Below, in pieces: positions 13,428-63,999 of a stretch of DNA of 64,000 bases. The notes under the pieces are model-generated. The model did not search any database. It was given only the letters and a program-made list of their open reading frames with translations, and was not told the origin of the DNA. Source of the DNA: an uncultured virus (IMG/VR IMGVR_UViG_3300025869_000012) (Duplodnaviria > Heunggongvirae > Uroviricota > Caudoviricetes); IMG/VR virus record IMGVR_UViG_3300025869_000012. One strand, written 5' to 3'. Made by a program: the position numbers and the translations under genes. Every line of letters starts with the position of its first letter. Position 1 is the stretch's first letter.

Positions 13428-13429
13428 TT

Positions 13430-16890: not shown

Positions 16891-16891
16891 C

Positions 16892-18401: not shown

Positions 18402-18714
18402 AAAGATCCACGCTAATGGAGTTTTTGAGTTTCACCGAATAGAATTTAATAAAGGATTTAAATGCTCAGAACACGAGCATGAATTTAAATGGAACGGATT
18501 TTATGTAGAGTCCGGTAAAATGTTAATCAGAGTCTGGCAAGATGATCAAAATCTTTTAGATGAGACAATATTAGAAGCAGGTGATTTTACTATGGTTAAA
18601 CCTGGTAAATATCATCAGTTTGAAGGTATTGAAGATGGTGTAGCTTTTGAGTTATACTGGGCTGAGTTTAACCACGATGATATAAAAAGAAGAACATCAG
18701 GTAAGAGAGCATGA
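18370..18714 (+). CDS. Cupin-fold protein (sugar isomerase-like)
   Basis: CSEHEHEFKWNGFYVESG...PGKYHQF. Confidence 0.7.
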   Translation: MKAGKIWGKTEKIHANGVFEFHRIEFNKGFKCSEHEHEFKWNGFYVESGKMLIRVWQDDQNLLDETILEAGDFTMVKPGKYHQFEGIEDGVAFELYWAEFNHDDIKRRTSGKRA

Positions 18715-19343: not shown

Positions 19344-20088
19344 GTTTATAATATCAGGACCATGTGTTATAGAAAGCGAGTACACATGCATGAAAATAGC
19401 AGAGAAAGTAAAAGAACTTACAGCTAAGTATGGTTTTGATTACATATTTAAAGCTTCATTTGATAAAGCAAACAGAACTTCTGTAGACTCATACAGAGGA
19501 CCAGGTTTACAAGAGGGATTAGAAATACTAGCTAAAGTTAAAAAAGAGTTTGATGTTCAAATAACAACAGACATACACGAACCTATACAAGCTATACAAG
19601 TTAAAGATGTTGTTGATGTTATACAAATACCTGCTTTTTTATGTAGACAAACAGATCTTTTACTTGCAGCCGGCAGAACAGGTAAGACCGTAAATATAAA
19701 GAAGGCACAGTTTATGAGTGGTAACAACATGGAGCACCCAATTAAAAAAGTGCAATCCACGTGTAATAATAATATAATGGTAACTGAGCGTGGAACTATG
19801 TTTGGTTTAGGTAACTTAGTTGTAGATTTCCGACAGATACTAGATATGAAAAAATTTAACGTACCTATAGTTATGGACGTTACTCATTCAACTCAAAAGC
19901 CTAGCGCTCTTGGCAATAAAAGTGGTGGTGATAGAAAGTATGCACCATACATAGCTAAGTTAGCACAAGCAGTTGATGTTGATGGTTACTTCTTTGAAGT
20001 ACACCCTGACCCAGACAACGCTTTAAGCGATGGTCCTAACATGGTACCGTTAAATAATTTTGAAACAATATTAAAATTTATAGCATGA
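19330..20088 (+). CDS. kdsA: Kdo-8-phosphate synthase
   Basis: GPCVIES, KASFDKANRTS, RGPG, QIPAFLCRQTDL, NIKKAQF, ERG, DVTHS, EVHPDP..A.SDG. Confidence 0.95.
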   Translation: MLMDKFIISGPCVIESEYTCMKIAEKVKELTAKYGFDYIFKASFDKANRTSVDSYRGPGLQEGLEILAKVKKEFDVQITTDIHEPIQAIQVKDVVDVIQIPAFLCRQTDLLLAAGRTGKTVNIKKAQFMSGNNMEHPIKKVQSTCNNNIMVTERGTMFGLGNLVVDFRQILDMKKFNVPIVMDVTHSTQKPSALGNKSGGDRKYAPYIAKLAQAVDVDGYFFEVHPDPDNALSDGPNMVPLNNFETILKFIA

Positions 20089-20735
20089 GAATATTTATAG
20101 GAAGTGATTCACGTCATCCGCAAGCTACAAAAGTAGTTAGAAAGTCTATACTAGACAACGGTGATCACGAGGTTATGTCTTTAGTAAAAGCGCAGCTAAT
20201 TAAGCGTGGTATTTATGGTAGAAAAGATGTGCCTAATGAATCAACAGAATTTTCTTTTACAAGGTTTTATACACCTTTGTGTAACAACTGGAATGGCATA
20301 GCCATCTTCTGTGATAATGACTTCGTTTGGAAGTGTGATCCTGAAGAGATTGTGCAGTACTTAGGAGATAAAACAGTAGCGGTTGTAAAACATAAAATTG
20401 ATGATGTTAAAGGAACAAAGATGGATGGAGTTAAAAACAAAATGTACCCAAAGAAATGTTGGAGTTCATTAATGGTATTTAACTGTGAGAAATTAAAAGG
20501 TATATTAACTAAAGAATATTTAGACAATGCTACACCACAGCAATTACATCAGTTTGAGTGGGTAGATGATAGTGAGATAGCTGAGATACCCGTTAAATAT
20601 AATCACTTAGTAGGTTATTACGAAAAAAATGATGACATAAAAGCGATACATTATACTAACGGTGGGCCTTGGTTTGATAAGTATAAGGATGGAGAGTTAT
20701 CAGAAGAGTGGTGGAGCGTATACAACAGCTTGTAA
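20085..20735 (+). CDS. GT-A glycosyltransferase (GT8/plant CDI-like)
   Basis: IFIG.D; STEFSFTRF; FCDNDF (DxD); WSSLMVFN; LHQF.W; NHLVG; HYTNGGPW. Confidence 0.8.
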   Translation: MRIFIGSDSRHPQATKVVRKSILDNGDHEVMSLVKAQLIKRGIYGRKDVPNESTEFSFTRFYTPLCNNWNGIAIFCDNDFVWKCDPEEIVQYLGDKTVAVVKHKIDDVKGTKMDGVKNKMYPKKCWSSLMVFNCEKLKGILTKEYLDNATPQQLHQFEWVDDSEIAEIPVKYNHLVGYYEKNDDIKAIHYTNGGPWFDKYKDGELSEEWWSVYNSL

Positions 20736-21502
20736 AAAATAAATCAGTAATACTTGTTGGCAACTCTGTAGAGTTAATGCATCATGATTATGGCAAGTTC
20801 ATAGATAGCCATGATATTGTTGTACGCTTTGGTAGAGCTGTTGATAGTATAGCTGATGATAAAGGAAAACAATTAGGTAGTAAAACAAACATATGGGTGA
20901 CTGGTCAGTTCAGAGCTCCTATATGGAAGAGGCGTAATAAAGAATTTACAAAAGGTAAATTTAAAGATGTTGAAATATTACTTAATAGATGTCGTGGTAA
21001 TTTTTTACTCAAAGACTGGGTATTAGAAGATCATCTACCAAAGGGTATGCCTTATACTCAGATGTGGTCAGACGCAGAACTAGAATCACTCTGGAACGGT
21101 TTTGGCAATTCAATGTACAGCTTACAACTCAGGCCTTCAGCTGGGTTTTTAACAATACTATATTTTATTAGGGAAATTAGTACTCAAAAGAAATTGAGTA
21201 TTATTGGATATGACTTCTTTCATAAGAGCGTAAAGAAGAATACATATATGGCTAAGAACGTAAAAGACGGTAATGGTGAATGTGATCCTCACAGCTGGCA
21301 TTTACCTCTTTATACTACAAGGCATTCAGCGCATGATCGTAATTTAGAAAATCAATATGTGAGTAAGTTAGAACGTGATGGTTTGCTTGAGTGGCACGCG
21401 TTAAGTGATATGAAAAGAAATAAAGTTAAATATACTGGGTGGATGAAGGGTCAGAAGATAATAAGAAGTGTGGCTAGAAAAACGGCTGTGTCAAAAATCT
21501 AG
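20708..21502 (+). CDS. GT29 sialyltransferase-like (probable Kdo/ulosonate transferase)
   Basis: Sialylmotif L (VGNS...G..IDSHD.VVRF...G.KT), S (PSAG...IIGYDF), VS (HDRNLE). Confidence 0.78.
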   Translation: MVERIQQLVKNKSVILVGNSVELMHHDYGKFIDSHDIVVRFGRAVDSIADDKGKQLGSKTNIWVTGQFRAPIWKRRNKEFTKGKFKDVEILLNRCRGNFLLKDWVLEDHLPKGMPYTQMWSDAELESLWNGFGNSMYSLQLRPSAGFLTILYFIREISTQKKLSIIGYDFFHKSVKKNTYMAKNVKDGNGECDPHSWHLPLYTTRHSAHDRNLENQYVSKLERDGLLEWHALSDMKRNKVKYTGWMKGQKIIRSVARKTAVSKI

Positions 21503-48464: not shown

Positions 48465-50873
48465 TTAACTTGGTTCGAATCTTCCTAAACCAATATCTCC
48501 ACTTATTATATCATTACCTGAAGATTCAAAATTTTTATTTTTTGATGCAGCAGTTTTTCTTTGCTCCATACCTTGCATCACAACTCTTGTGTCTTTTCTA
48601 TCTTCACGACCTTCTTCCATAGCCCTTGCAGCTTGTTTGTCAGCTTGCTTTAGTTGTAAGTTATACTGAAACTCTTGCTCCATTAATTGTTTTTTAAGTT
48701 CAGCTTCAAGTTGTAATTTGTTAGCGTCAAGTTCAGCTTGCTGTGCATTGTTTTGTAGCTCCAGCGCTTGTATAGCTTGTTGTTTTTGAACTTCAGCTTG
48801 AGCGGCAACCTGTTGTGCTTGTGCGTTAGCTTGAGCTTGTTGTTGTATGTTTTGCTGTGCTATAGCTTGATCTCTTTCTATTTTCTTTTTACGTCTTAAC
48901 TTTAGTAATTGATTTGCAAGCTTTATATTTCTAACTTCTCTAATATCAATTGCATCTTCAAGTTCTATACTATTAGCTTGTAAAGCCATTTGTATATTGT
49001 TTTCTAATAATTGTTTTTCTTCTTCATCAGGTTGTAACTGTAAGAATATACCAAAGTCATACAAGTGTAATTCACTTAGCTCTGCTAATGTTGCTACGTT
49101 GTGTGCGCCAATTGCTTGTATAAATGCGTCTCTTGTTGGTGAATACTCTATAACATCTGATATTCTCAATGATAAGTTTTCTGCTAGTTCTGATGTTAAA
49201 AATAAACCGCCTTGCAATATATGCCTTGTTGCAACGTTTGAATTTGCAGCTGCTAGTTTTTGTACACCTACTAAAGCGTTTGCATCTGGTGTGCTAGCAT
49301 CTCTAGCTTCGTTTAATCCAGTTACATCTCTTATCATTTGTAAATAATAATTGTATGTAGTGATTAAACTTTGTAGCTTTTGACCACCACTACCACTTGA
49401 TATTTCTTGTATAGGAACTTTACCAGGGTTAGGATCACCTTCTTGCGTTATTGATCTACCTATGATACTACCAGTTTGGAAGAACATATTTAATGCTTCT
49501 TGTGGATTATAATTTGTACCGTTACCTAAATCAACTTCAGCTAAACCGTCGGCATCTAAGTAAACACCATCAGGTACTAATCTTGACATTACTTGCTGTA
49601 ACTTCAAGTGAGTTAACTGTATCATATCAGCAAAACCTGTTACCCTTTTTACTAATGATTCTATTCTTCCCTTGTATATTCTTGGTGCATGTATAGCATA
49701 ATTCATTTTAACCTTAGTATAATCACTCTTTGGTCTTAACATGTTTTGAGCTAAATTCCACTTTAATAATTTTTTTGTACCTAATATTAATGCTCCTTCG
49801 TATAGAACTTCTAGTGAGTTAGATAATTTTTCAAATGGAACTTCACCAACAGCTTCAAATGAATCATCTTTTTGTATAGCCTTTGAACCACCCGTACCTG
49901 TTTGTTTTAACTTATATACTTCATTGTTATATGTTTTATAATTAAAATATAATACTTGAGCGATATTATTATCAACATTATTATCATTGTATGATGAACT
50001 GTATCTATTTGCCGCGTATGCATTTTGATGTGGTTGATCTTCTATTTCCAATAAATCTTCATTTGTTAATTGTGGAAATTGTTTTTTTAACTCGTTTATA
50101 GGTATATTTTTTACTTCACCACAGTAATATATATCATCAAAATACGGAGACTCAGTGTATGAGTATACTAAATTAGCAGGATCAACATAATCAACTGTTA
50201 TACCTGATGATGTATCAAAGTTATTTTTAACGGCAGCTATACCAAGCACCGCTATATCATAATACAATCTTTTTAATGTTTGATCGTATTTATTACCATC
50301 AAACAAAACGTTTATTGCTTGCTCCTCTGCTATTTCTATTGATTGCTTATAAGTTAATTGCATGTGAAGCTCTAACTCTTCTTGTGAACCAGGTAATTCT
50401 GCTTTATCGTTTTCATATAGATTAATACCAAACTGATTTATAGCCTCATCTTGAAACTCTGCCGTTTGCATGTCTCTTATTATTGACTCCATATATTCAG
50501 TTCTTTTTTGAACACCAAATGGATCTTGAGAATATGCTTTAATATCATAAGCCCTTTCTGCTATACCATTAACAACAATATCAACAAATTTTGGAATTAC
50601 AGGGACTGGTGTCCAGTCTAGATTTAGATATGATAAATCACCGTTAATTGATAATTCATCTTTATATTTTTGAACTGATTGTTCGCCTCTTGCATATAAT
50701 CTTAACTTGTGAAAATCTTGTTGGTTTAAACTAAATCTATTAGAATTAAAGTCCTTACCAAACCATTCAGCTTCAATTGCTTGACCTACTTTTAATCCGT
50801 ACTCGTAGCTGTTCTTTTCTTGATCACTGACTACTTGACTTGGAAAATAATTTTGTGCACTTTTTGTGTTCAT
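48465..50873 (-). CDS. Portal protein
   Basis: 802 aa right after terminase; FPSQ, IPKFVDIVVNG, IRDVTGLNEARD; Gln-rich C-terminal barrel. Confidence 0.85.
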   Translation of the reverse strand: MNTKSAQNYFPSQVVSDQEKNSYEYGLKVGQAIEAEWFGKDFNSNRFSLNQQDFHKLRLYARGEQSVQKYKDELSINGDLSYLNLDWTPVPVIPKFVDIVVNGIAERAYDIKAYSQDPFGVQKRTEYMESIIRDMQTAEFQDEAINQFGINLYENDKAELPGSQEELELHMQLTYKQSIEIAEEQAINVLFDGNKYDQTLKRLYYDIAVLGIAAVKNNFDTSSGITVDYVDPANLVYSYTESPYFDDIYYCGEVKNIPINELKKQFPQLTNEDLLEIEDQPHQNAYAANRYSSSYNDNNVDNNIAQVLYFNYKTYNNEVYKLKQTGTGGSKAIQKDDSFEAVGEVPFEKLSNSLEVLYEGALILGTKKLLKWNLAQNMLRPKSDYTKVKMNYAIHAPRIYKGRIESLVKRVTGFADMIQLTHLKLQQVMSRLVPDGVYLDADGLAEVDLGNGTNYNPQEALNMFFQTGSIIGRSITQEGDPNPGKVPIQEISSGSGGQKLQSLITTYNYYLQMIRDVTGLNEARDASTPDANALVGVQKLAAANSNVATRHILQGGLFLTSELAENLSLRISDVIEYSPTRDAFIQAIGAHNVATLAELSELHLYDFGIFLQLQPDEEEKQLLENNIQMALQANSIELEDAIDIREVRNIKLANQLLKLRRKKKIERDQAIAQQNIQQQAQANAQAQQVAAQAEVQKQQAIQALELQNNAQQAELDANKLQLEAELKKQLMEQEFQYNLQLKQADKQAARAMEEGREDRKDTRVVMQGMEQRKTAASKNKNFESSGNDIISGDIGLGRFEPS

Positions 50874-50876
50874 CTT

Positions 50877-53090
50877 TTATTTTATTATTTGTGAAGTAAA
50901 ACCTTCGTTATTATACTTTGAAAAACTTAAGTCTACTTTTGCTTTTTGAATCTTTTTATTCGGCTGATAAAGGTGTCTATTACATGCCATAATAGCAAGC
51001 CCGCTGCTAATAGTAGCATCAAACTTAGTACGCTTAGTAATATCAAACCTCGACCAATCATTTAGTGTTCTGTTAAAATACATGTTACCACAACCTCCAT
51101 CTGACTTTAAACCTACATTTTGTTGTATGTAAGTTTCAATAGCTGCCGCGTGAGCTTGCTTTATATCTTCACTAGAATTTGGTATACCACCTATTTCTTT
51201 TTCTGTGGTTGATAGTTTATTCCAAACTTTATCTGGCCTATTCATTGAATAACCTCTATAACCGCGTCTTCTTAAATGATACAATAAACGTGGTTTGTTA
51301 TTCTCTGCAAGTATTGGCATGCCATAAAACACTAATGCCATTAAAACATCTTCAAAAAATATTTCAGCGGTTGCTGGTCTAGCCACGTACTCTAAAAAGA
51401 ATTGACTAGGAGGCGCGTCCTCCATACTAAACTTTGTTAATCCATGTAAAGCACCATTAGATCCTAAACCGTCTACAGTACCTGATATATCATAACTATC
51501 ACAACCAAAAGCACCCATGTGTTCATTGCCTGGATAATTAGTTCCGTTTTTGTCAATTACTTTATTTTGCAAATGTGACGGTGGTACCCAACTAACTTTA
51601 AATCTACCGCCTGGATCTGGGTAAAACTGTACGTTTGAATCTTTTACCCCGTTAACCCACTGAAAATTACCAGTAGATACACCTTGATTTGTTTCTTCGT
51701 TGTAATCTATTTGTTCGTATATTTTTACTAGATTAAATATACTATTCTTTGTTTCATCTCTAAACGCATGTTCTTCAGATCTTGGAAACTGTCTGTAAAA
51801 CTCGTTTAATGCATCTTGATCATTTTTTAAACCATCTGCTTCATTTTGCCAGTGATCTATAACGCCAGTATCAATAATGTCGTTGTGTGGGCCGTGGATC
51901 TCGTTATCTGGTGTATCAAACACAGGTAAGCCATACTCATCCATAAATCCTTCATAGTTCCACTCCATTGGTATAAAAAACGAATATAGTCCTGAAGCTG
52001 TTTGGCCATTTTTATTTCTTTTAGTTACGTCAGAGTTATAATATAATTTCTTAAAATTATCACCACCTTTATCTAGTGCATTACAAGTACTACCCATCAT
52101 ACACTTACCTATGATTCTACTACCTAATCTTAGAGTTGTTTTAGTTACTCTCCAGTTGTTTAATATATTATCTGGTCTTTCCCACTTACCTGATTCATCG
52201 TGTGCAAGAAGTTTTAGTTTCTCACCATCATATGAATTATCACCGGTGTTTTTCCAATCGATAGTCGTATCAAGACCGGTAAGTTCTTCTGGTTGATCGC
52301 TGGCAGCAACGGTAAGCTTTCTTCTTGTAAGCTTAGACGCTGGTACTCTGTACGCCAACTCTGTCTTCGGCCTGTCCATTCCATCCTGTATAGGTTTGAA
52401 AAAGAAAGGATAGTTGACTGATATTGGAACAACTTTATCCGTGAACATCTTTTTAGCGTCGGCACCAGACTTAGATAATATACCGAATCTTGCATCTGAT
52501 GATATTGTGGCAAGGTTAACGATTTCACCTGAGGCCATAAATGAAAAACCAGATCGTCTGTTTTTAAGGTAACACATGCCATATGATCTTGTATCTGATT
52601 TACAAGCTTCCCAGAATATAAAGAATAATCTATTTGCTTCTCTAAAATCAGGGTGTCCAACGTCAATCTTTGACCATTGGAGGTACATGTAATGAGTACC
52701 AGTAACATAAGTAGCAACACCCTTGTTATAAAACCAGAAACCATTTTCTCTTCTTTTAAATTCATCCTCTATGTAATCAATATATTTGTTTTTAAACTCA
52801 CCAGGATATTCTCTCCAATCAAATATTGATTTTATCTTATTGAGTTCTTTTGGGTATGGCATCACTTGCCATTTGTCATTTTCAAACTTATGTATTTTCT
52901 TTGGCGCTTTTGGTAATGCTATTTGAAAGTTTTGTATTTCTATTATATCACCAATCTGCCCTGTCTTAGATATAACAACAATGTCGTGTTCTTTATTATA
53001 CCCGTACTTCCACTTTTTACTTTTGTTTAACCTATTAACAGTTGTTAACTTTATTGGTTGAACAATTTTGTATAATGTTTGGTTGTACAT
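50877..53090 (-). CDS. terL: Terminase large subunit
   Basis: KNRRSGFS, HDESGKW, GST, FGCDSYD, ENNK, FDATISSG. Confidence 0.9.
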   Translation of the reverse strand: MYNQTLYKIVQPIKLTTVNRLNKSKKWKYGYNKEHDIVVISKTGQIGDIIEIQNFQIALPKAPKKIHKFENDKWQVMPYPKELNKIKSIFDWREYPGEFKNKYIDYIEDEFKRRENGFWFYNKGVATYVTGTHYMYLQWSKIDVGHPDFREANRLFFIFWEACKSDTRSYGMCYLKNRRSGFSFMASGEIVNLATISSDARFGILSKSGADAKKMFTDKVVPISVNYPFFFKPIQDGMDRPKTELAYRVPASKLTRRKLTVAASDQPEELTGLDTTIDWKNTGDNSYDGEKLKLLAHDESGKWERPDNILNNWRVTKTTLRLGSRIIGKCMMGSTCNALDKGGDNFKKLYYNSDVTKRNKNGQTASGLYSFFIPMEWNYEGFMDEYGLPVFDTPDNEIHGPHNDIIDTGVIDHWQNEADGLKNDQDALNEFYRQFPRSEEHAFRDETKNSIFNLVKIYEQIDYNEETNQGVSTGNFQWVNGVKDSNVQFYPDPGGRFKVSWVPPSHLQNKVIDKNGTNYPGNEHMGAFGCDSYDISGTVDGLGSNGALHGLTKFSMEDAPPSQFFLEYVARPATAEIFFEDVLMALVFYGMPILAENNKPRLLYHLRRRGYRGYSMNRPDKVWNKLSTTEKEIGGIPNSSEDIKQAHAAAIETYIQQNVGLKSDGGCGNMYFNRTLNDWSRFDITKRTKFDATISSGLAIMACNRHLYQPNKKIQKAKVDLSFSKYNNEGFTSQIIK

Positions 53091-54359: not shown

Positions 54360-54370
54360 TGTATTAAATT

Positions 54371-55276
54371 TTATTTTTTATTTTTTGGTTTTCTGCTATC
54401 AATAAACCAATTTTTATATTTATCTCTTTTAGCAGTTATGTATTCAAAGTACTTATCAACTTTTTCTTTCCAGTTTTTATCTATCCTAGGACATATAACT
54501 CCTGATTTAGGACTTGAAAAAACTTTGTTGATATAATTTCTTGCATCATGCTTGTTATCAAACAAATGATTACTAACACAATAAAAAGATCCATAAAATA
54601 TATTGTTCCATACATCAAATGGTTCTATGTCTTTACCTAATACACTTGCATATACAGCACTTTCACTTAAATGCGTTGTGTAAACTTTCTTAGACTTTTG
54701 TATATAGTAATACATGTCCATCTCTCTTGGCAATACGTTTTCCTGCCCAAACAAATCTTTCATTTCACCAATTATCTGATGGGTTGTTATCGGGTGTGGC
54801 TTAAATAAAACGTTACCTTTATGTGTTCTTTGTATATGCCTCATTTTATTCAAACAACATCTGTCTTTTAATTTGTTTGAACCTGGAAGTATAACTAAGT
54901 AATCTTTAGCTGGCCACTTTCGGTAGTCATCTAATCTATCTTTGTACTTGTTGGCTGTGTTATCTGTTATATTACTTACAAAATAAGAAGCATAATCTAA
55001 AACTTCATGATCTTTATCATTAAACGCGTCTGGTAATTGCGCATCTCTTATTTTAAAATTCATTGGCTGTAAATAAAAACACGTTGCCAACTCTGTGTAT
55101 GCCATTGTTTTAAAGTAAGGCATTTCCTCTGCCATTACATCATAAGCATACTCTATTCCGTTTTCGCTACACTTTCGTATAACGTAGCCTTCTACTTGCT
55201 CTAAGTAATCGAGCTTATCATTTTTTTGAAGGTGCCCTATTCTTTCTTTAAGGACCTTCCTATTAAACATTTCCAT
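54371..55276 (-). CDS. KpsS/KpsC-like CMP-ulosonate (Kdo) glycosyltransferase candidate
   Basis: VLFKPHP and IQKSKKVYTTHLSESAVYASVLGK resemble the capsule-synthesis GT-B C-lobe. Confidence 0.55.
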   Translation of the reverse strand: MEMFNRKVLKERIGHLQKNDKLDYLEQVEGYVIRKCSENGIEYAYDVMAEEMPYFKTMAYTELATCFYLQPMNFKIRDAQLPDAFNDKDHEVLDYASYFVSNITDNTANKYKDRLDDYRKWPAKDYLVILPGSNKLKDRCCLNKMRHIQRTHKGNVLFKPHPITTHQIIGEMKDLFGQENVLPREMDMYYYIQKSKKVYTTHLSESAVYASVLGKDIEPFDVWNNIFYGSFYCVSNHLFDNKHDARNYINKVFSSPKSGVICPRIDKNWKEKVDKYFEYITAKRDKYKNWFIDSRKPKNKK

Positions 55277-55305
55277 ATTATTAAATTAAATTTAAATTTC
55301 TTTAT

Positions 55306-55315
55306 ATACTATTAC
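55306..55315 (-). promoter_or_regulatory. Candidate late promoter TGTAATAGTA
   Basis: Shared motif in a short intergenic gap. Confidence 0.35.
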
Positions 55316-55335
55316 ACACTTTTAATCTTTTCTAA

Positions 55336-58300
55336 CTAGGTGCCAACGCTGTTGTAGTCTACCCTGTCAGTATTGTAATCTGCTCTTGTAGTATTGTAAA
55401 AAGATATACCAGTAGTAAATGTTGTTGTTGTGTTAAATACCGTGTTAGTACTTATAACAGTATTGGTTGCTCTTGTAGTATTGTAAGTTGTAGTAGTAGC
55501 TCTATTAGTTGATACCACAGTTGTTGTGTTAGTTGAAGTGTTGTAAGTTGTAGTTGTATTTCTGTTTGTAAGGGTTGACGTGTTAAATACAGTAACAGTT
55601 GCTGTTGTGGTGTTGAACGTGGTAGTTGTAGCTGTGGTAGTATTAAATACTGTGGCTGTGATTCTGATTGTTCCTGTAGCCGTGCTGGTAGATTTGCTTG
55701 TTTCGTATGTAGTTGTAGTGGCTCTGTTAGTTGACACAACAGTACTTGTAGCTTTCTCCGTAACAGTACTTGTATTAAATACAGTTGTTGTGTTTCTATT
55801 TGTACTTATAGTAGTTATAAATATTGTAGTTCTTGATGTGTTAAAGGTTGTGGTTGTGTCAATATTTGTTTCGTACGTCGTGCTATATACAGTTATAGTG
55901 TTAGTACTTGTGTTAAAAGTAGTTGTGGTAGCTGTGCTAGTGTTAAACGTTGTTACTGTAGCTGTTGTAGTATTAAATACCGTTATTGTATTTGTTGATG
56001 TATTAAATACGGTATTAGTTGTTCTATTAGTTGACACTACTGTATTTGTAGCTTTACTAGTATTTGTTGATGTGTTAAATACAGTGGTTGTACTAGTATT
56101 TGTATTATAAGCAGTTGTTGTACCTCTTGTAGTATTAAAAGTTGTTGTAGTATCTACATTAGTTGAGTATGTTGTTGTATATGCCGTAATAGTGTTGGTT
56201 GATGTATTAAAAGTTGTGGTAGTATCGATGTTTGTAGATACTGTCGTGCTTGTTGCTCTATTTGTACTAACTACAGTACTAGTTGCTTTTTGTGTTACAG
56301 TTGATGTATTAAATACAGTAACAGTAGCTGTACTAGTATTGAAAGTAGTAGTTGTTGCTCTATTTGTTGATACAGTTGTTGTAGTATTAAAAGTTGTTGT
56401 AGTACTAGTATTAAAAGTTGTAGTAGTAGCTGTACTAGTATTAAAAGTCGTTGTTGTAATAAATGTGGTTGTAGTTGAAGTGTTAAATACAGTAACGGTA
56501 GCCGTGCTTGTATTAAACGTAGTTGTAGTATCAACGTTTGTAGACACCGTGGTACTAGTAGTAACAGTTGTAGCAGTGCTTGTGTTAAATACAGTATTTG
56601 TAGTTTTTGTAGTTTCGTATGTAGTAGTAGTTGCTCTATTTGTACTGTATGTAGTTGTAGTACCAAATGTAGTCGTTGTGCTAGTATTAAAGGTGGTGGT
56701 TGTAGCTTGGTTAGTACTATATGTAGTTGTTGTATTAAACACAGTTGTTGTACTGGTATTGAATACTGTTACTGTGCTGGTAGAAGTATTAAAAGCAGTA
56801 GTAGTGGCTCTGTTTGTAGATATAGTTGTAGTTCTTGATGTTTGCGTTGTAGTCGAAGTATTAAAAACAGTGTTAGTTGTTTTTGTTGTTTCAAACGTGG
56901 TGGTCGTAGCTCTATTTGTACTAATAGTAGTAGTTCTACTAGTTGCTGTAGATGTTGACGTATTAAATGTAGTTGTTGTAGCTCTATTAGTAGATATAGT
57001 CGTAGTCCTTGAAGTCTGTGTTGTTGTGCTTGTATTAAATACAGTATTAGTTGCTGTTGACGTATTATATGTAGTAGTAGTTGCCCTATTTGTACTTATC
57101 GTAGTGGTTCTGCTAGTAGAGGTTGCAGTCGAGGTATTAAAAGTAGTTGTGGTGGCTCTGTTAGTAGAGTATGTTGTTGTTGTAGCTCTATTGGTAGATA
57201 TAGTAGTTGAGCGAGATGTAGATGTAGTAAACACAGTTGTCGTTGCTCTATTAGTAGAATATGTTGTGCTAGTTCCAAATGTAGTTGTCGTTGCTCTATT
57301 GGTAGATATAGTCGTGCTAGTTCCAAAGGTAGTTGTTGTAGACCTATTTGTTGAAACGGTTGTGCTGGTTGCAAATGTTGTGGTTGTGTTATAAGTTGTA
57401 GTTGTATTAAAAGTAGTGGTTGTGGCACGGTTAGTACTAAACGTTGTGGTTGTACTTGTATTAAATGTTGTTGTTGTTGCTCTATTAGTAGAATATGTTG
57501 TAGTAGTTCCAAATGTAGTTGTTGTAGATCTACTTGTTGATACAGTTGTACTAGTTGCAAACGTTGTAGTTGTATTAAAAGTCGTAGTTGTGTTAAACGT
57601 GGTAGTTGTGGCACGGTTGGTACTAATTGTTGTTGTTGTACTAGTGTTAAATGTAGTTGTAGTACTTCTACTTGTAGCGGTGCTTCTACTTGTAGCAGTA
57701 CTTTTAGTTGTGTTAAACGTTGTGGTTGTACTAGTGTTAAACACGGTATTAGTGGCTCTACTTGTAGACATAATGGTGGTTCTACTTGTGGCAGTACTTC
57801 TACTTGTAGATTTATTAGTTACCGTACTTGTGTTAAATATTGTTGTGGTATTAAACGTAGTAGTTGTGTTTCTGTTAGTAGATGTATTTCTACTTGTAGC
57901 TGTTGTTTTATTTGTTATTGTACTAGTATTAAATGTAGTGGTAGTTGCCCTATTAGTACTTATAGTTGTAGTTCTACTAGTTTGAGTTGTTGTAGACGTG
58001 TTAAACGTAGTAGTAGTTGAACTACTTGTAGCGGTGCTTCTAGTTGTTAGTTTGTTTGTTATTGTGCTGGTGTTAAATATTGTTGTGGTGTTAAAAGTTG
58101 TTAGAGTTGTGTAGGTTGTAGTTGTATTAGTACTAGTATTAAACGTTGTAGTTGTGCCAGTACTGTATCCACCACCATCTGTTCTTGCAGCGTGACAGTC
58201 TAATGATGCACCATTATCAAAAATACCAGACGCTGACGGAAGCGTATCACTACCAATAGGAAGTAACACAGGCTGATTAACATCAAACTCAAACCAACTA

Positions 58301-58878
58301 GTATTATCAGTACCACCTTCTATTTCATATGAAACATTTTCACTATCAGCACTATGCCTTAATCTAATTCTACCACCATTATCCATTAAAGCCTTAAGTA
58401 CATTGTACTGGCTATCCCCATCCGCATCTGTAGCAGACATTGCCAGTTTAGTAACACTTAGAACAGCAGCATTATTACCTCTTATTTGACCGGCACCAGG
58501 ATTTGCCATTGAAACATTTGTACTCCAGTTAAATACAGCACCTTCGTTGGTCCCGTCACCTCTAAACAGTATTTGATTTTTTGTTGTAGCAAGAACCGTA
58601 TTAGTACTTGTATTAAACGTTGTTGTAGTATTAAACGTTGTTGTAGTATTTCTGCTAGTAGACGTTGATCTACTTTCCGTCGTGGTTCTATTTGTAGACA
58701 CTGTGGCACTAGTAGCTGTTGATCTAGTTGTAGCTGTTGCTCTAGTTGTGGTAAACGTAGTGGTAGTACTTTTACTTGTAGCTGTTGACCTAGTTGTGTT
58801 AAAAGTTGTGGTTGTATTTGTTGCTGTAAGTCTATCTGTAACTAAAGATGTTTGAAAAGTTGTAGTAGTATTAGGCAT
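55336..58878 (-). CDS. Thr-rich repeat protein B with embedded globular domain
   Basis: TTTTFNTS / STNRA repeats; ATG 58878 (MPNTTTT) overlaps the methyltransferase stop. Confidence 0.85.
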   Translation of the reverse strand: MPNTTTTFQTSLVTDRLTATNTTTTFNTTRSTATSKSTTTTFTTTRATATTRSTATSATVSTNRTTTESRSTSTSRNTTTTFNTTTTFNTSTNTVLATTKNQILFRGDGTNEGAVFNWSTNVSMANPGAGQIRGNNAAVLSVTKLAMSATDADGDSQYNVLKALMDNGGRIRLRHSADSENVSYEIEGGTDNTSWFEFDVNQPVLLPIGSDTLPSASGIFDNGASLDCHAARTDGGGYSTGTTTTFNTSTNTTTTYTTLTTFNTTTIFNTSTITNKLTTRSTATSSSTTTTFNTSTTTQTSRTTTISTNRATTTTFNTSTITNKTTATSRNTSTNRNTTTTFNTTTIFNTSTVTNKSTSRSTATSRTTIMSTSRATNTVFNTSTTTTFNTTKSTATSRSTATSRSTTTTFNTSTTTTISTNRATTTTFNTTTTFNTTTTFATSTTVSTSRSTTTTFGTTTTYSTNRATTTTFNTSTTTTFSTNRATTTTFNTTTTYNTTTTFATSTTVSTNRSTTTTFGTSTTISTNRATTTTFGTSTTYSTNRATTTVFTTSTSRSTTISTNRATTTTYSTNRATTTTFNTSTATSTSRTTTISTNRATTTTYNTSTATNTVFNTSTTTQTSRTTTISTNRATTTTFNTSTSTATSRTTTISTNRATTTTFETTKTTNTVFNTSTTTQTSRTTTISTNRATTTAFNTSTSTVTVFNTSTTTVFNTTTTYSTNQATTTTFNTSTTTTFGTTTTYSTNRATTTTYETTKTTNTVFNTSTATTVTTSTTVSTNVDTTTTFNTSTATVTVFNTSTTTTFITTTTFNTSTATTTTFNTSTTTTFNTTTTVSTNRATTTTFNTSTATVTVFNTSTVTQKATSTVVSTNRATSTTVSTNIDTTTTFNTSTNTITAYTTTYSTNVDTTTTFNTTRGTTTAYNTNTSTTTVFNTSTNTSKATNTVVSTNRTTNTVFNTSTNTITVFNTTTATVTTFNTSTATTTTFNTSTNTITVYSTTYETNIDTTTTFNTSRTTIFITTISTNRNTTTVFNTSTVTEKATSTVVSTNRATTTTYETSKSTSTATGTIRITATVFNTTTATTTTFNTTTATVTVFNTSTLTNRNTTTTYNTSTNTTTVVSTNRATTTTYNTTRATNTVISTNTVFNTTTTFTTGISFYNTTRADYNTDRVDYNSVGT

Positions 58879-59935
58879 TATCTGCACCTCCTTCCCCAAT
58901 AAGTATACCGTTAACAAAGTAATTATAGTTAACGCCTAGCTTACATATTTCGTATATAGTATTATCTGAGTCATCAAAATCTATTTGTGTTATTTCTATT
59001 TCATCACCAGCAACGCCATATAACTTATCACCAACAAGTAGTTGATTTACATTAAAATCTCGCCACGTATTATTTCTTTTTGCTATTATAGGCTGGTTGC
59101 CAGTTGCTTTTAAATTAGAGTTGATAGTGTAAATACCTTTTGCTTTCATTACAAAAACATTTTTATCACCTCTTTGTTTTGTTGATGTTTTACCTGATAC
59201 ATCTGATGTCAATAGTGTGTCGTGTTTAACCGCTTGCCACATAGGAACAGCATCATCACTGTTAACATGAATAGTAGCGTCTTGCCTTACCACGCCATAG
59301 CCTGTTGCTGGCTTTTGATTTGTATACACAGGTAAGTGATATACAGTTCTGTTGAAATATTGATTTGCAGGTGGATTAATATTAACATCGTAAAAATCAA
59401 TATGATCATCTGGCCAATAAAACTTCATCCACGGGTCTGTTGTACCACCGCTCCAGTTCCACCACGATATTCTACTGCCTTGCTTTGCTTTTTGCTTTAC
59501 AAAATACGCAAACTTTGGGTGTAAGTCTGCATCAGCGTATGTGTCCATTAATATAACGTCGTACCTACCCGCTTCTTGCATTAAACTAAACCACCTGTCG
59601 TTTACGGCTCTTACTGTTGGATTACTAGAGGCAAACTCAGCTAGCTTAGGTTGTATTTGTGGATGCGTTTCTGCTATTGTATGTGATGCAGGTTTTCTAG
59701 CCTGCACAGCTGTAGCTAATATACCCATGCCAAAACCACACTCTAGAACATGGTCACCTTCATTAACGCACACCTCTGCCATCTTTTCCATAATAGGCTG
59801 TTCCCAACCCATCATAACCTCCCATGTTTCTTGCGCTGCCGGGTTAAACCAAACAATATCACCATTGTCCCTAACTGTAAGGTCTGCCTCGTGATAATTG
59901 ACTTGTGTATCCGACGGTTTTTCGTATCCTGACAT
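58871..59935 (-). CDS. Class I SAM methyltransferase (RMT2/GAMT-like) fused to degenerate Hint domain
   Basis: VMMGWEQPIM, VLECGFGMGI, HTIAE.HP, YDVILMDTY; C-terminal ATGNQP, LLVGDKL, YNYFVNGIL. Confidence 0.75.
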   Translation of the reverse strand: MSGYEKPSDTQVNYHEADLTVRDNGDIVWFNPAAQETWEVMMGWEQPIMEKMAEVCVNEGDHVLECGFGMGILATAVQARKPASHTIAETHPQIQPKLAEFASSNPTVRAVNDRWFSLMQEAGRYDVILMDTYADADLHPKFAYFVKQKAKQGSRISWWNWSGGTTDPWMKFYWPDDHIDFYDVNINPPANQYFNRTVYHLPVYTNQKPATGYGVVRQDATIHVNSDDAVPMWQAVKHDTLLTSDVSGKTSTKQRGDKNVFVMKAKGIYTINSNLKATGNQPIIAKRNNTWRDFNVNQLLVGDKLYGVAGDEIEITQIDFDDSDNTIYEICKLGVNYNYFVNGILIGEGGADNA

Positions 59936-59940
59936 ATTTT

Positions 59941-59950
59941 TATTATTACA
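59941..59950 (-). promoter_or_regulatory. Candidate late promoter TGTAATAATA
   Basis: Shared motif in a short intergenic gap. Confidence 0.35.
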
Positions 59951-59961
59951 TGTTTATTTTC

Positions 59962-62900
59962 TTAGTTACAACCTCTACTACAGCCACCACCGCCACCACT
60001 TGCTGTGAATGTTGATCTTGATGTGTTGAACGCTGTTACGAATACTGTAGTTGTATTTGTTGCTGTAGATCTTGTTGTATTAAACGTAGTTGTGGTATTA
60101 TACGTGGTTGTTGTACTTCTTGATGTATTGTAAGCTGTAGTTGTGCTAAATGTAGTGGTTGTATTAAACACGGTTGTGGTGTTAAATGTGGTCGTTGTAT
60201 TGTATGTGGTTGTAGTGTTAAATGTTGTTTCAGTAGTTCTATTTGTTGATGTATCTCTATTAGTAGAAACAATTGTCACAAACGCGGTGTAATGAGACTT
60301 GGATCTACCAACGGTTGTCGTAGCGGTAGTAGTACTAGTGTTATATGTTGTACTAGTACTTCTAGATTCTGTTGTATTTCTACTAGTTGCTGTAGCTCTA
60401 TTAGTAGATCTTATATGTGATGAATATGTAGTTGTAAACTGAGTTGTTGTATCAAACGTGGTAGTCGTATTTCTATTTGTACTATATGTGGTAGTGGTAC
60501 CAAACGTTGTAGTGGTACTAGTATTGAAAGTAGTTGTAGTAGCTCTATTGGTTGCCCGTATGTGTGATGCGTATGTAGTTGTGGTATTAAATGTAGTAGT
60601 GGTAGTAAATACAGTATTTGTAGTTCTACTAGTTGCCGTAGATCTATTAGTAGATCTTATAAGCGATGAATATTGCGTTACAAAAGTTGTAGTTGTACTA
60701 AACGTAGTGGTAGTACTAGTATTAAATGTTGTTGTGGTATCTCTATTTGTTGATATAGTAGTACTCTTGCTCGTGTTATATGTGGTTGTTGTGTTAAAAG
60801 TGGTTGTTGTGTTAAAAGTAGTTGTCGTAGCTCTATTTGTACTGATTGTTGTACTAGTACTAGTATTAAATGTAGTAGTTGTTGATCTACTTGTTGCTGT
60901 AGATTTACTTGTAGCTGTACTTCTAGTAGTCTGTGTGTTTGTGCTAGTATTGAATGTGGTTGTAGTTGATTTACTAGTTTGTGTCGTTGTGCTAGTATTA
61001 AACGTAGTTGTCGTGGCTCTATTTGTACTGATTGTTGTACTAGTACTGGTGTTAAACGTGGTGGTCGTTGATCTACTTGTTGCTGTACTTTTGCTTGTAG
61101 CTGTACTTCTAGTGGTCTGTGTATTTGTACTGGTGTTAAAAGTAGTTGTGGTTGACCTACTAGTTTGCGTAGTTGTACTAGTGTTAAACGTAGTGGTAGT
61201 TGATTTACTTGTTTGCGTTGTGGTGCTAGTGTTAAATGTAGTTGTAGTAGCTCTATTAGTACTAGTACTAAACGTAGTTGTTGTAGACGTGTTAAACGTA
61301 GTTGTGGTACTTGTAGAAGTATTAAACGTAGTAGTTGTAGCTCTATTAGTTGAATACGTAGTAGTAGTATTAAACGTTGTCGTAGTAGATGTATTAAAAG
61401 TAGTAGTAGTATTTGTACTTGTATTATACGTTGTAGTCGTATTTCTATTTGTACTATATGTGGTAGTGGTACCAAAAGTTGTAGTGGTACTAGTGTTGAA
61501 AGTAGTTGTGGTAGCTCTATTTGTTGAGTACGTAGTTGTGGTATTGAATGTTGTAGTGGTAGACGTATTAAATGTTGTTGTAGTACTCTTACTCGTATTA
61601 AAAGTGGTAGTTGTATCTACATTAGTAGAATATGTAGTGGTAGTACCAAACGTGGTAGTAGTACTTGTATTAAATACAGTTGTAGTAGATTTACTTGTTT
61701 CATATGTAGTAGTTGTAGCCCTGTTAGTAGATATGGTAGTTGTCCTGTTTGTAGATGTAGACGTACTAGTATTAAATGTAGTGGTAGTTGCCCTATTAGT
61801 ACTTATAGTTGTAGTTCTACTAGTTTGAGTTGTTGTTGAAGTATTAAATGTGGTGGTTGTATTAGTACTTGTGTTATAAGTTGTTGTAGTGTTTCTATTT
61901 GTAGATATAGTTGTACTTCCAGCGGTGGTTGTATTAGTACTTGTATTAAACACAGTATTAGTAGACCTACTAGTTGATACCACCGTATTAGTAGCTCTGT
62001 TAGTTGATATAGTTGTAGTTCTACTTGTAGATGTTGACCTATCAGTTTCGTAAGTAGTGGTGGTTGCTCTATTAGTACTTATTGTAGTTACTCTACTTGT
62101 AGCTGTGGCAGTAGAAGTATTAAATGTAGTTGTGGTTGCTCGGTTAGTAGATACTACAGTATTAGTAGCTATATTAGTTTCGTATGTAGTTGTATATGCT
62201 GTAATCGTATTAGTGCTAGTGTTAAACACTGTAACAGTATCCGTACTAGTATTAAATACAGTATTAGTTGCTCTATTAGTACTAACAACTGTACTTGTTG
62301 ACTTTTGTGTAACCGTACTTGTATTAAACACTGTGTTTGTGGTGGTTGATGTGTTAAACGTTGTGGTAGTGCTTGTTGATGTGTTGTACGTAGTGGTAGT
62401 TGCTCTGTTGGTAGCTATTGTAGTCGTAAATACAGTTGTAGTACTAGTTGATGTGTTGAATGTTGTTGTAGTATCTATATTGGTACTATACTCAGTAGAT
62501 GTTGATCTATTGGTTACAACAACAGTATTGGTAGCTCTATTAGTAGAGTATGTTGTGGTAGTATTTCTATTAGTTGATACCACCGTGCTTGTTGTCTTCT
62601 GTGTTACAGTAGACGTATTGAAAACAGTATTAGTAGTTCTAGTTGTTTCAAATATCGTTGTTCTACTAGTTTCATATGCTGTTTCAAAAACAGTATTAGT
62701 GGTTATGTTAGTAGAGAAAGTCGTAGTAAAGTTTGTTGTAGTATTAGTAGATGTATTAAATGTAGTAGTGGTAGATGTGCTAGTGTTGAAAGTTGTGGTA
62801 AACGTAGTGGTAGTATTGAAAACTGTACTAGTATCTATATTAGTCGAGTATGCAGTATTAGTAGTTCTGTTAGTACTAACTACTGTATTGGTTGATCTGT

Positions 62901-63111
62901 TTGTAGAAAGTGTTGTATTGAAAGCTGTCGTCGTGGATGTTGACGTATTAAAGGTTGTTGTAGTTGATGTAGACGTGTTGAATGTGGTAGTTGTACTTGT
63001 AGATGTGTTGAATGTGGTTGTTGTAGAATACGCTGTCTGCGTCGTACGGTTTGTAGACGTGCTCCTCGAAGTTGAGGTACTTCTCTTAAATATTCTAAAT
63101 AAATCCCACAT
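59962..63111 (-). CDS. Thr-rich repeat protein A (1049 aa)
   Basis: Almost entirely TTTTFNTS / STNRA repeats; ends GGGGGCSRGCN. Confidence 0.85.
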   Translation of the reverse strand: MWDLFRIFKRSTSTSRSTSTNRTTQTAYSTTTTFNTSTSTTTTFNTSTSTTTTFNTSTSTTTAFNTTLSTNRSTNTVVSTNRTTNTAYSTNIDTSTVFNTTTTFTTTFNTSTSTTTTFNTSTNTTTNFTTTFSTNITTNTVFETAYETSRTTIFETTRTTNTVFNTSTVTQKTTSTVVSTNRNTTTTYSTNRATNTVVVTNRSTSTEYSTNIDTTTTFNTSTSTTTVFTTTIATNRATTTTYNTSTSTTTTFNTSTTTNTVFNTSTVTQKSTSTVVSTNRATNTVFNTSTDTVTVFNTSTNTITAYTTTYETNIATNTVVSTNRATTTTFNTSTATATSRVTTISTNRATTTTYETDRSTSTSRTTTISTNRATNTVVSTSRSTNTVFNTSTNTTTAGSTTISTNRNTTTTYNTSTNTTTTFNTSTTTQTSRTTTISTNRATTTTFNTSTSTSTNRTTTISTNRATTTTYETSKSTTTVFNTSTTTTFGTTTTYSTNVDTTTTFNTSKSTTTTFNTSTTTTFNTTTTYSTNRATTTTFNTSTTTTFGTTTTYSTNRNTTTTYNTSTNTTTTFNTSTTTTFNTTTTYSTNRATTTTFNTSTSTTTTFNTSTTTTFSTSTNRATTTTFNTSTTTQTSKSTTTTFNTSTTTQTSRSTTTTFNTSTNTQTTRSTATSKSTATSRSTTTTFNTSTSTTISTNRATTTTFNTSTTTQTSKSTTTTFNTSTNTQTTRSTATSKSTATSRSTTTTFNTSTSTTISTNRATTTTFNTTTTFNTTTTYNTSKSTTISTNRDTTTTFNTSTTTTFSTTTTFVTQYSSLIRSTNRSTATSRTTNTVFTTTTTFNTTTTYASHIRATNRATTTTFNTSTTTTFGTTTTYSTNRNTTTTFDTTTQFTTTYSSHIRSTNRATATSRNTTESRSTSTTYNTSTTTATTTVGRSKSHYTAFVTIVSTNRDTSTNRTTETTFNTTTTYNTTTTFNTTTVFNTTTTFSTTTAYNTSRSTTTTYNTTTTFNTTRSTATNTTTVFVTAFNTSRSTFTASGGGGGCSRGCN

Positions 63112-63119
63112 ATACTACA

Positions 63120-63761
63120 TTATGAAAAATCACCAACAAAATTGACTAATGCTTGAGTTGATGATATCACAACGTATGATATTACTGACGTGTCGTTTGC
63201 TCCTGTAGCAAAATTTACACTAGCACCCGCTGGTGTTAGCATGTTACTTGGTAAAGCTGCCATAGCAAAATCTGCCCCTATACTTGAAGGGTTTTTAAGT
63301 ATTATAACACCAGATTGTCCAACGTTTTCACTGGCTATTGTCATAACTAATGAGTTTGAATTATCTACTAAGTTAACTACAAAGTTATCGTTTGCTGTTA
63401 AATTTATCGTTGATACACCACTACTAGGCGTTACTGTTGTTATTGTTCTTCTTAAATTTTGAGTTACTTTTATACTACCTGTTACATCAAAATCACTACT
63501 TACTGTTCCTGAACCTGTCAGAGCTAATGTGCTACCATCAAATGTTAAATTAGCCTCGCCGTTTAAACTGTCGGCATCAGATGTTGTTATTATCCTATTA
63601 TCAGCGCCATTAGCAATATCTACATTACTATAATTTGCTTTTGTAAAATTACCAAGTTGTGCTAGCGTAAAGTTTTTAGTTGAACCTGATACATCTGTAC
63701 CTATCAACTTATCACCGTCTGTTAAACTTGTGTCTGCTGCTATTCTACTAATTCTAGGCAT
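63120..63761 (-). CDS. Tail fibre/spike-like protein
   Basis: DKLIGTD...TKNFTL, NRIIT...LNGEANLTFDG fibre motifs; ATG 63761 preferred. Confidence 0.6.
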   Translation of the reverse strand: MPRISRIAADTSLTDGDKLIGTDVSGSTKNFTLAQLGNFTKANYSNVDIANGADNRIITTSDADSLNGEANLTFDGSTLALTGSGTVSSDFDVTGSIKVTQNLRRTITTVTPSSGVSTINLTANDNFVVNLVDNSNSLVMTIASENVGQSGVIILKNPSSIGADFAMAALPSNMLTPAGASVNFATGANDTSVISYVVISSTQALVNFVGDFS

Positions 63762-63765
63762 ACTA

Positions 63766-63999
63766 CTATTTTTTATTAAACTTCTCGAAACTTCGACCGC
63801 CAAAATAGGCACCGATTACAGTTATCAATACTAACTGTAGCAAGTCCGTCCATTTTTGTTCTACGTTAAAATTAACTGATCCACTATCCACAAATACCAT
63901 AAGGACAGTTGATACAATAAGGAAAACTAGCACAAGGGGTCTTACCGATCTTGTTAGCCAGTTGCCGTGTTCTAAATCTGCTTTCCATCTTTCTGTTAC
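63766..63999 (-). CDS. Holin of 3TM/GTA-holin type (C-terminal part, truncated by window end)
   Basis: Manual translation RWKAD...WLTRSVRP-TM-...TM-YFGGRSFEK*. Confidence 0.75.
   Translation of the reverse strand, partial: VTERWKADLEHGNWLTRSVRPLVLVFLIVSTVLMVFVDSGSVNFNVEQKWTDLLQLVLITVIGAYFGGRSFEKFNKK

Follow-up and report, generated by a model that had tools for sequence, protein, structure and literature searches.

Why would a phage place the genes of two very large, threonine-rich (Thr-rich) proteins beside a gene that looks like a glycosyltransferase (GT)? The question is raised by IMG/VR record IMGVR_UViG_3300025869_000012, an uncultured virus of the Caudoviricetes, of which a stretch of 64,000 nucleotides (nt; the window) was analysed. 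In this window, a fibre-type gene is followed by the genes for the Thr-rich protein ThrA, a methyltransferase-Hint protein, a second Thr-rich protein ThrB, and p301, a protein with a KPHP motif. This order had been proposed in an earlier reading of the DNA letters (the sequence-only reading), and it is indeed present, tightly packed on the minus strand (Table 1). From the analysis below, the probable product of the cassette is a very long fibre of two chains, perhaps coated with sugar, of a kind that has not been described so far. As an explanation of the whole cassette, a two-chain fibre with the neighbouring enzymes acting on it is the best that was found, with a probability of roughly 0.5.

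Mirror complementarity of ThrA and ThrB

The repeats of both Thr-rich proteins are built on a period of two residues. Identities other than Thr recur at even lags only (lag 1: 13, lag 2: 49, lag 3: 4), and the residue types are split by parity: one parity holds Thr, Phe, Arg, Tyr, Ile, Lys and Val and the other Thr, Ser, Asn, Ala and Val, with no slip across 800 residues. As far as can be read from sequence, such a strict two-residue period is the signature of a continuous beta-strand, not of a disordered Pro/Thr/Ser tract.

When the two chains are laid against each other in antiparallel direction, residue a of ThrA faces residue 1183-a of ThrB in one ungapped register of 818 residues, with Thr opposite Thr, Asn opposite Asn and Ser opposite Ser. 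In the core of this register (ThrA 11-810), all 44 basic residues of ThrA lie opposite an aromatic residue of ThrB, and all 42 basic residues of ThrB lie opposite an aromatic residue of ThrA. Aromatic-aromatic and basic-basic pairs are both absent from the core (0 each). The R-F and F-R pairs occur 35 times each on the core diagonal (2.1 expected), N-N pairs 51 times (9.0 expected) and S-S pairs 48 times (12.5 expected). The cognate diagonal thereby reaches 86 aromatic-basic pairs, against 40 for the next best of 684 diagonals and a median of 2. The maximum is 27 with ThrB in parallel direction and 43 for ThrA against its own reverse.

With gaps allowed, the alignment extends to 1033 residues in five blocks (818, 30, 48, 42 and 95 residues), and 118 of the 135 basic residues across both chains face an aromatic one. 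Relative to the register, ThrA has single-residue insertions at 819, 850 and 899, and residues 112-244 of ThrB stay unpaired. Both ends of the pair are level to within 11-13 residues. An inverted repeat in the DNA was considered as the source of the mirror pattern and ruled out, as a comparison of the two genes gave 0 minus-strand blastn hits. Because the genes share no inverted DNA similarity, the pattern is one of the proteins.

The same pairing is observed among relatives. The share of basic residues that are paired averages 0.84 over 22 distinct cognate pairs and never drops below 0.72; the longest block without a gap takes up 0.83 of the shorter chain and reaches up to 1256 residues. The same two measures come to 0.48 (maximum 0.77) and 0.19 in 80 non-cognate combinations. 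Low figures were likewise obtained when chains were compared in parallel or with themselves, with a mean of 0.565 paired in the self-antiparallel alignments. The chains range from 434 to 1425 amino acids (aa), and the lengths of partners co-vary (r = 0.93, n = 22, for pairs that are not phylogenetically independent). Between the window and the related locus L009, a 62-aa indel is present in both chains.

From these data the following architecture can be proposed. ThrA and ThrB would zip into one heterodimeric antiparallel beta-ribbon of ~1030 residue pairs, kept in register by cross-strand cation-pi pairs. These pairs would lie on one face of the ribbon, leaving the Thr/Ser/Asn face exposed. 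At 0.33-0.34 nm per residue, the ribbon could measure up to ~340-350 nm if fully extended, and gene length would then set fibre length. ThrB 112-244 would form a globular knob near one ribbon end, and the upstream fibre-type protein probably anchors the ribbon or works with it. Gene position suggests a virion location of the cassette proteins, and the likely role is that of a long adhesive or host-contact filament on the virion.

Aromatic-cation and Thr-Thr cross-strand pairs are known to stabilise designed beta-hairpins, and OspA provides an example of a single-layer beta-sheet. The pairing preferences of ThrA and ThrB are the ones by which two-stranded antiparallel sheets are known to be stabilised. 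The present pattern differs in its extent of ~1000 residues, in its division over two gene products, and in the co-variation of lengths and unit order across phages. No description of a two-gene mirror-coded fibre or module was found in literature searches that covered listings and abstract openings. If the chains pair as implied, they would form a protein analogue of a duplex, with register and choice of partner encoded by a simple side-chain code along ~1000 residues. Fibre length would be tunable by repeat number. This has implications for the construction of very long, thin appendages by phages, and the code could offer a design rule for programmable beta-ribbon materials.

Some local features of the chains can be added. 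In the ThrB insert, Thr drops to 5-7%. The insert has no Pfam family and no partner in ThrA, and its matches in the protein atlas are unnamed viral clusters only, with scores of 0.87 or lower. Each of the single-residue ThrA insertions (60415-60657) lies in an SS(L/H)IR or ASHIR motif; they may be beta-bulges near the end that bears the ThrB insert. The C-terminus of ThrA (59962-60003) reads GGGGGCSRGCN, lies outside the paired region, and could be an end cap or a metal site. In loci L033 and L065, the chains corresponding to ThrA finish in a Cys-rich tail that contains four Cys.

The candidate enzymes of the cassette

By sequence, p301 has no match in Pfam, NCBIfam or the PDB, and its PHROG is one of unknown function. 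Among 1.84 billion cluster representatives 265 relatives were found. More than 350 related enzyme sequences were obtained, and the module can be called abundant. In an alignment of 98 sequences, with identities down to ~20%, K110, K159, H161 and P162 are invariant and D46, Y60, Y111, G132, N134, E205, K215, S258 and G259 nearly so. The AlphaFold2 model made from the family alignment has a pLDDT of 96.1 and a pTM of 0.92. When it was compared with the PDB by Foldseek, the first 16 matches listed (ranks 1-20) were the 3-deoxy-D-manno-octulosonate (Kdo) transferases KrkA, KpsC and WbbB, followed by UDP-GlcNAc 2-epimerases, TagF and a polysialyltransferase. An independent all-against-all aligner also placed the Kdo transferases on top. 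The GT-B fold of KpsS/KpsC type, for which a check of this gene had been suggested, was thus recovered, with KpsC, WbbB and KrkA as the best matches. At profile level the best PDB hit is again KpsC (6mgb, E 0.035); here KPHP falls over KVHP, and S-E...G-K over SSQ...GK. Beyond the p301 family itself, the BFVD matches include 'capsule polysaccharide biosynthesis' proteins of Tetraselmis virus 1.

Two defining features are ascribed to the retaining Kdo enzymes in PMC12887879, the KrkA paper: an Asp nucleophile, conserved without exception, within a QXXXD motif, and a (K/R)XHP motif of which the His binds the phosphate of cytidine monophosphate (CMP). The latter motif is kept in the p301 family, with K159, H161 and P162 in all 98 aligned homologues. 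At the position of the Ser-Ser phosphate pair, the region of S204 aligns to SSQ of KpsC; this residue is Ser in 84 of the 98 sequences and Thr in 14, and the next one is E205 (93/98), not Ser. p301 carries the donor-binding signature of a CMP-ulosonate transferase and is, from its fold and motif, a candidate enzyme of this type.

In its GT-B-like fold and its (K/R)XHP motif, and perhaps in a Ser at the phosphate-binding position, p301 resembles KpsC/KpsS (GT107), WbbB (GT99) and KrkA (GT140). It differs from them as a stand-alone protein of ~300 aa that is encoded by a phage within a fibre block and has negligible sequence similarity to them; moreover, its acceptor is presumed to be a protein, and not a glycolipid or glycan. 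The GT-B sialyltransferases and polysialyltransferases (GT80, GT52 and GT38) also have an HP motif, but their match to p301 spans one domain only, and the window holds a Kdo pathway and no sialic-acid pathway. Most likely, p301 would transfer an ulosonic acid onto Ser/Thr of the exposed ribbon face. The foremost candidate for this sugar is Kdo, which CMP-Kdo of the host or of the phage would supply. Such an anionic sugar would offset the charge of the chains, both of which have an isoelectric point (pI) near 11.

Virion glycosylation as such has precedents. Mycobacteriophages glycosylate virion proteins, and chloroviruses and giant viruses have their own glycan machinery. These systems and the cassette are alike in that a viral GT gene lies beside the structural gene whose product is thought to be modified. 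In the systems of mycobacteriophage type, however, hexoses are added to short Ser/Thr-rich tails of capsid and tail-tube proteins by enzymes of GT2/GT4 type, whereas p301, as the candidate enzyme of the cassette, is of Kdo-transferase type and its would-be substrate a giant two-chain repeat fibre. If this is true, virion proteins would, through the linked enzyme, join lipids and glycans as acceptors of CMP-ulosonate transferases.

The second enzyme of the cassette was proposed to be a methyltransferase fused to a Hint domain, and this holds at fold level. The protein consists of a domain of the guanidinoacetate N-methyltransferase (GAMT) family (~1-210) and a degenerate domain of Hint/bacterial-intein-like (BIL) fold (~212-350). 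Residues 40-147 match GAMT with an E of 1.5e-8 (phmmer against the PDB), and PF27704 (GuanidinoAc_N-MeTrfase) was found on 85 of the 88 homologues listed; a Pfam scan that lacked this model returned only Methyltransf_25 (E 0.087). With the AlphaFold2 model (pLDDT 89.6), the top five Foldseek matches are GAMT (E 4e-10; TMt 0.65-0.73). The C-terminal domain matches the BIL2 structures 6tmm and 6y75 (TMt 0.69-0.72, root-mean-square deviation 2.9-3.3), the BIL domain 2lwy (TMt 0.78) and the intein 6rpq (E 7.3e-8). To our knowledge, no GAMT-Hint fusion has been described.

Catalysis by Hint domains relies on a first Cys/Ser/Thr, a block-B TxxH His and a terminal Asn or His-Asn. Although the fold is matched, these catalytic residues are not kept: across 63 homologues, the Hint half (residues 212-354) has no conserved Cys, His or terminal Asn. 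The consensus shows ATGNxP at the TxxH position and ends in ...ILIKxG. Self-cleavage is therefore unlikely. Speculatively, the substrate of the methyltransferase could be the Arg side chains in the pairing code or, alternatively, the glycan.

Spread of the module and competing readings

Does p301 accompany the Thr-rich genes beyond the window? To answer this, 80 IMG/VR loci with p301 were gathered, of which the 70 with at least 300 nt upstream were used for upstream counts. A Thr-rich open reading frame (ORF) ends at most 300 nt before p301 in 68 of these 70, and none lies downstream of p301 in any of the 80 loci. Of the two exceptions, L082 has an over-extended ORF call that hides a Thr-rich ORF, and L071 has an interrupted frame of Thr type. 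Two upstream Thr-rich ORFs are present in 40 loci, with the methyltransferase-Hint gene between them in 22.

A block of fibre gene, two Thr genes and p301 was also observed in a different phage type with no adjacent terminase (L033 and L064-66). A CheckV completeness of 12-32% at 47-88 kb suggests that these genomes are much larger. In L065, the p301 homologue is followed (10961-13752) by a GT4 gene, a fusion of GT25 with an OGFOD2-like oxygenase, and a HAD phosphatase gene. The fibre upstream in the same locus has collagen repeats (Pfam E 4.9e-70), which recalls the hydroxylation and glycosylation of collagen in giant viruses.

Named phages carry the arrangement as well. In Caulobacter phage Lullwater (Autographiviridae), the tail fibre gp40 is followed by a 215-aa protein with 26% Thr and then by the p301 homologue. 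In the Vibrio phages KVP40 and 6E35.1a (Straboviridae), a protein of 177-197 aa rich in Thr, Ser, Arg and Tyr precedes a small coiled-coil protein and the p301 homologue. In Caulobacter phage Cr30, the Thr-rich gp253 and gp254 come before the p301 homologue and adjoin neck genes. The Thr-rich proteins of KVP40 and 6E35.1a can be self-folded with the aromatic-basic code, giving 9 and 12 pairs with 0 like-like pairs (shuffle maximum 7). As the module is present in the culturable phages KVP40, 6E35.1a, Lullwater and Cr30, it can be tested at the bench. It had been suggested earlier to check whether enzyme and Thr-rich genes co-occur. They do so in 68 of the 70 related loci, as well as in several phage lineages that are unrelated. 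No homology link was found between the window proteins p84 and p72 and the small coiled-coil proteins that precede the p301 homologues of the Vibrio, Stenotrophomonas and Caulobacter phages.

A number of observations count against a decorated two-chain fibre. For the enzyme, no conserved Asp or QXXXD was found in columns 124-146 of p301, where 95 of the 98 sequences have N134 and position 138 varies. With the nucleophile missing, membership of the retaining Kdo-transferase families did not stand, p301 is not placed in GT99, GT107 or GT140, and its mechanism may differ from that of the retaining Kdo enzymes; a displaced nucleophile is conceivable. For the cassette, 14 of the 40 loci with two Thr-rich ORFs have an unrelated 188-aa gene in place of the methyltransferase, and 4 have no gene there. 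The product of the 188-aa gene gives sub-threshold hints of a class-I methyltransferase (Spermine_synth E 0.042, NodS E 0.012), with no PDB hit and no homology to the 354-aa protein. For the pairing, L009 is without 24 residues of ThrA (480-503 in the window) and has no ThrB counterpart for this loss, which is either a tolerated loop-out or an assembly variant. The hairpin code of Lullwater gp41 is marginal (10 pairs against a shuffle maximum of 9), and Cr30 gp254 shows none. For the linkage, the synteny of loci from a single phage clade does not count as independent evidence, the 4 kb upstream of the p301 homologue of Vibrio phage F86 contain no Thr-rich ORF, and Stenotrophomonas phage DLP_6 is a counter-example in which the unannotated ORF upstream of the p301 homologue is not Thr-rich. 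For the sugar supply, only 2 of the 15 long relatives yielded kdsA, most of the 15 contigs being 12-88% complete and ending before the sugar cluster, and the relative G014 (86% complete) has the GT29-like gene and no kdsA. The DLP_6 ORF (L088 1-1660) extends from the start of the record nearly to the small coiled-coil gene that comes before the p301 homologue; it has a Hint-like end, which starts with a Cys and closes with His-Asn.

The fibre may be real and p301 may still act elsewhere, namely on a glycan or glycolipid of the host envelope (lipopolysaccharide, a capsule linker), for instance by altering the surface late in infection; it would then lie beside the fibre genes only through shared late expression. 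This would fit the solved relatives KpsC, WbbB, KrkA and polysialyltransferase, which act on glycan or lipid-linked acceptors, as well as phage F86, which keeps the enzyme without a Thr-rich neighbour, and the position of the kdsAB and GT29-like cluster 33 kb off on the other arm. It is harder to reconcile with the adjacency to Thr-rich genes in 68 of 70 loci, and with the fact that this adjacency persists in a transferred block and in phages of T4-like, T7-like and podophage type. We consider an envelope target unlikely.

Another possibility is that p301 is no glycosyltransferase at all and serves as a folding or assembly factor of the ribbon with a GT-B shell, or performs other chemistry (TagF-like phosphotransfer, or epimerase-like). 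Its residue conservation argues otherwise: K110, K159, H161 and P162 are invariant in the 98 sequences and D46, S204 and E205 nearly so, which points to a conserved active site of CMP-binding type. The whole-length structural alignments speak in the same direction, being limited to Kdo transferases, one epimerase and one OGT-like protein. A role outside glycosyl transfer thus seems rather improbable.

The sequence-only reading had taken each Thr-rich protein for an independent, disordered, mucin-like filament with dense Kdo O-glycosylation and methylation, forming a phage glycocalyx. The very high Thr/Ser content agrees with this, as do ~70 N-x-S/T sequons in each protein, the adjacent Kdo-transferase-like enzyme, and the KdsA and KdsB-like proteins encoded in the genome. 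However, mucin-like Pro/Thr/Ser domains are Pro-rich, aperiodic and disordered, and the repeats of ThrA and ThrB differ from this in sequence. ThrA has no Pro; ThrB has 5, of which 4 lie in the insert and 1 at residue 15, with 0 in the paired repeats. The even-lag periodicity and the regularly spaced aromatics are not those of a mucin, and an antiparallel, residue-by-residue match with co-varying lengths would be needless for a disordered tract. The 'mucin-like' label was accordingly dropped, and independent filaments of this kind are very improbable.

Scarcely credible, finally, is that the mirror match is a side effect of quasi-palindromic units (STNR.....FNTS) in chains that self-fold or homo-oligomerise: the basic repeat unit is itself mirror self-complementary, and off-register diagonals (40 pairs), the self-reverse comparison (43) and the self-antiparallel mean (0.565) show its effect, but only the cognate A-B register gives 86/86 with no like-like pair and runs on for 800 residues without a gap, units of 6 to 34 residues follow one another in an irregular order that is mirrored between the chains, their ends are flush within 11-13 residues, and non-cognate, parallel and self comparisons score far lower.

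A decorated two-chain fibre is thus preferred. In its fullest form the proposal reads that a two-gene antiparallel pairing code gives a ~1000-pair ribbon that evolves by matched insertions, and that this ribbon is decorated by a Kdo-type GT and by a guanidino-type methyltransferase that may act on the arginines of the code; this complete version is put forward tentatively. With such a ribbon, marine podophages, T4-like, T7-like and very large phages would have a protein fibre and a virion modification of a new class.

Sugar genes and genome context

The sequence-only reading also named KdsA, KdsB and a GT29-like enzyme in the same genome. Support for the three differs (Table 1): KdsA reaches equivalog level, the best five models of the KdsB-like protein are all KdsB with all scores below cut-off, and the GT29-like match is partial. 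The last covers residues 15-71 only (profile positions 58-111 of 272), with no NCBIfam hit for the protein, which is a second candidate for a CMP-sugar transferase. Homologues of it occur in Stenotrophomonas phage DLP_6 and in record LR756500, there ~7 kb from kdsA. In GenBank phages kdsA is rare (14 records).

A fixed link between the cassette and kdsAB/GT29 could not be upheld. Four relatives are at least 86% complete; besides G014, these are G004 and G006, which have kdsA, and G005, which starts inside the GT29-like gene. Since relatives, all of which retain the cassette, differ in whether they have the kdsAB and GT29-like genes, the sugar cluster is regarded as a variable accessory and not as a fixed partner. 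KdsA and the KdsB-like protein are a possible donor supply for the cassette. CMP-Kdo is made by every Gram-negative host, so the phage kds genes may only boost the supply. If true, the modification would explain kdsA and kdsB in some marine phages.

Within the sugar cluster, the radical SAM/SPASM, SDR-like and cupin genes upstream of kdsB could tailor Kdo and convert it, for instance, into a modified ulosonic acid. A 216-aa protein without a family (20085-20735) lies between kdsA and the GT29-like gene. A PAP2-family phosphatase gene (21862-22422, minus strand) adjoins the cluster at the junction of the two arms.

Table 1. Coordinates of the features discussed (window positions for genes; residue numbers for the insert and the pairing blocks where stated).
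Feature	Position	Strand	Details
Fibre-type gene	63120..63812	-	230 aa; from the ORF list
ThrA	59962..63111	-	1049 aa; 47.7% Thr, 0 Pro, pI 11.3
Methyltransferase-Hint protein	58871..59935	-	354 aa
ThrB	55336..58917	-	1193 aa from TTG; 43.4% Thr, pI 10.7
ThrB unpaired insert, residues 112-244	58186..58584	-	putatively globular, looped out of the pairing register
p301, KPHP protein	54371..55276	-	301 aa; K159-P-H161-P162
Large terminase	50877..53090		phrog_6681, E 7e-170
Portal	48465..50873		phrog_6547, E 2e-139
GT29-like protein	20708..21502	+	264 aa; Glyco_transf_29 E 2.2e-6, 27.7 bits against a cut-off of 23
KdsA, Kdo-8-phosphate synthase	19330..20088	+	NF003543 367.2 bits against 242; TIGR01362 361.7 against 314
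KdsB-like cytidylyltransferase	18711..19343	+	118 bits against a cut-off of 193; TIGR00466 65 against 155
Radical SAM/SPASM, short SDR-like and cupin genes	16790..18714	+	directly upstream of kdsB
Pairing block 1	ThrA 1-818		ThrB 1182-365
Pairing block 2	ThrA 820-849		ThrB 364-335
Pairing block 3	ThrA 851-898		ThrB 334-287
Pairing block 4	ThrA 900-941		ThrB 286-245
Pairing block 5	ThrA 942-1036		ThrB 111-17

The likely start of ThrB is the ATG at codon 14 (58878), where the protein atlas entry begins; this gives 1180 aa. In the product of the fibre gene, ~58 conserved aa at the N-terminus are followed by a C-terminal domain of ~140 aa. Both parts have a counterpart in a 1422-aa protein of L046: the N-terminal 55 aa match its start with 49% identity, and the C-terminal 142 aa match its end with 46% identity (E 1e-35). 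The fibre-type protein is further 35% identical over 116 aa to the end of the 907-aa collagen-repeat protein of L065. The 230-aa protein has no Pfam or PHROG family of its own, and BLAST gave no hit at E < 0.01 between it and Cr30 gp253 or Lullwater gp40, which match each other.

The cassette was found 100% identical in one IMG/VR contig (L003), and contigs of other runs, some of which may be the source sample, span ThrA and ThrB without indels. It is therefore not an assembly artefact. The stretch 53316-55276 has a word share of at least 0.99 in 14 marine metagenome DNA runs from 13 studies, and two metatranscriptome libraries contain 0.82-0.87 of its words; the phage is thus a recurrent one in marine samples. 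Metatranscriptome contigs (two libraries from one study) span 30/30 and 29/30 of the cassette bins, with DNA carry-over possible. Val/Leu-rich ORFs on the plus strand (56192-57394, 60458-61828 and 62057-63145) were rejected as genes, being by-products of the ACN-codon composition.

Downstream of p301, four small genes are followed by the large terminase and then the portal. The terminase shares 62% identity with its counterpart in an uncultured podophage and 44% with the terminases of Flavobacterium and Cellulophaga phages. Between cassette and terminase lies the gene of a 198-aa protein (53316-53912) that matches phrog_13932, annotated 'co-chaperonin GroES' (E 1.9e-18), and is kept in all related loci. 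The virion arm also encodes two giant proteins of 2894 aa (24685-33369) and 2065 aa (36297-42494). The latter carries a crAss muzzle C-terminal domain (E 3e-8), which ties this marine group to the crAss-like tail architecture.

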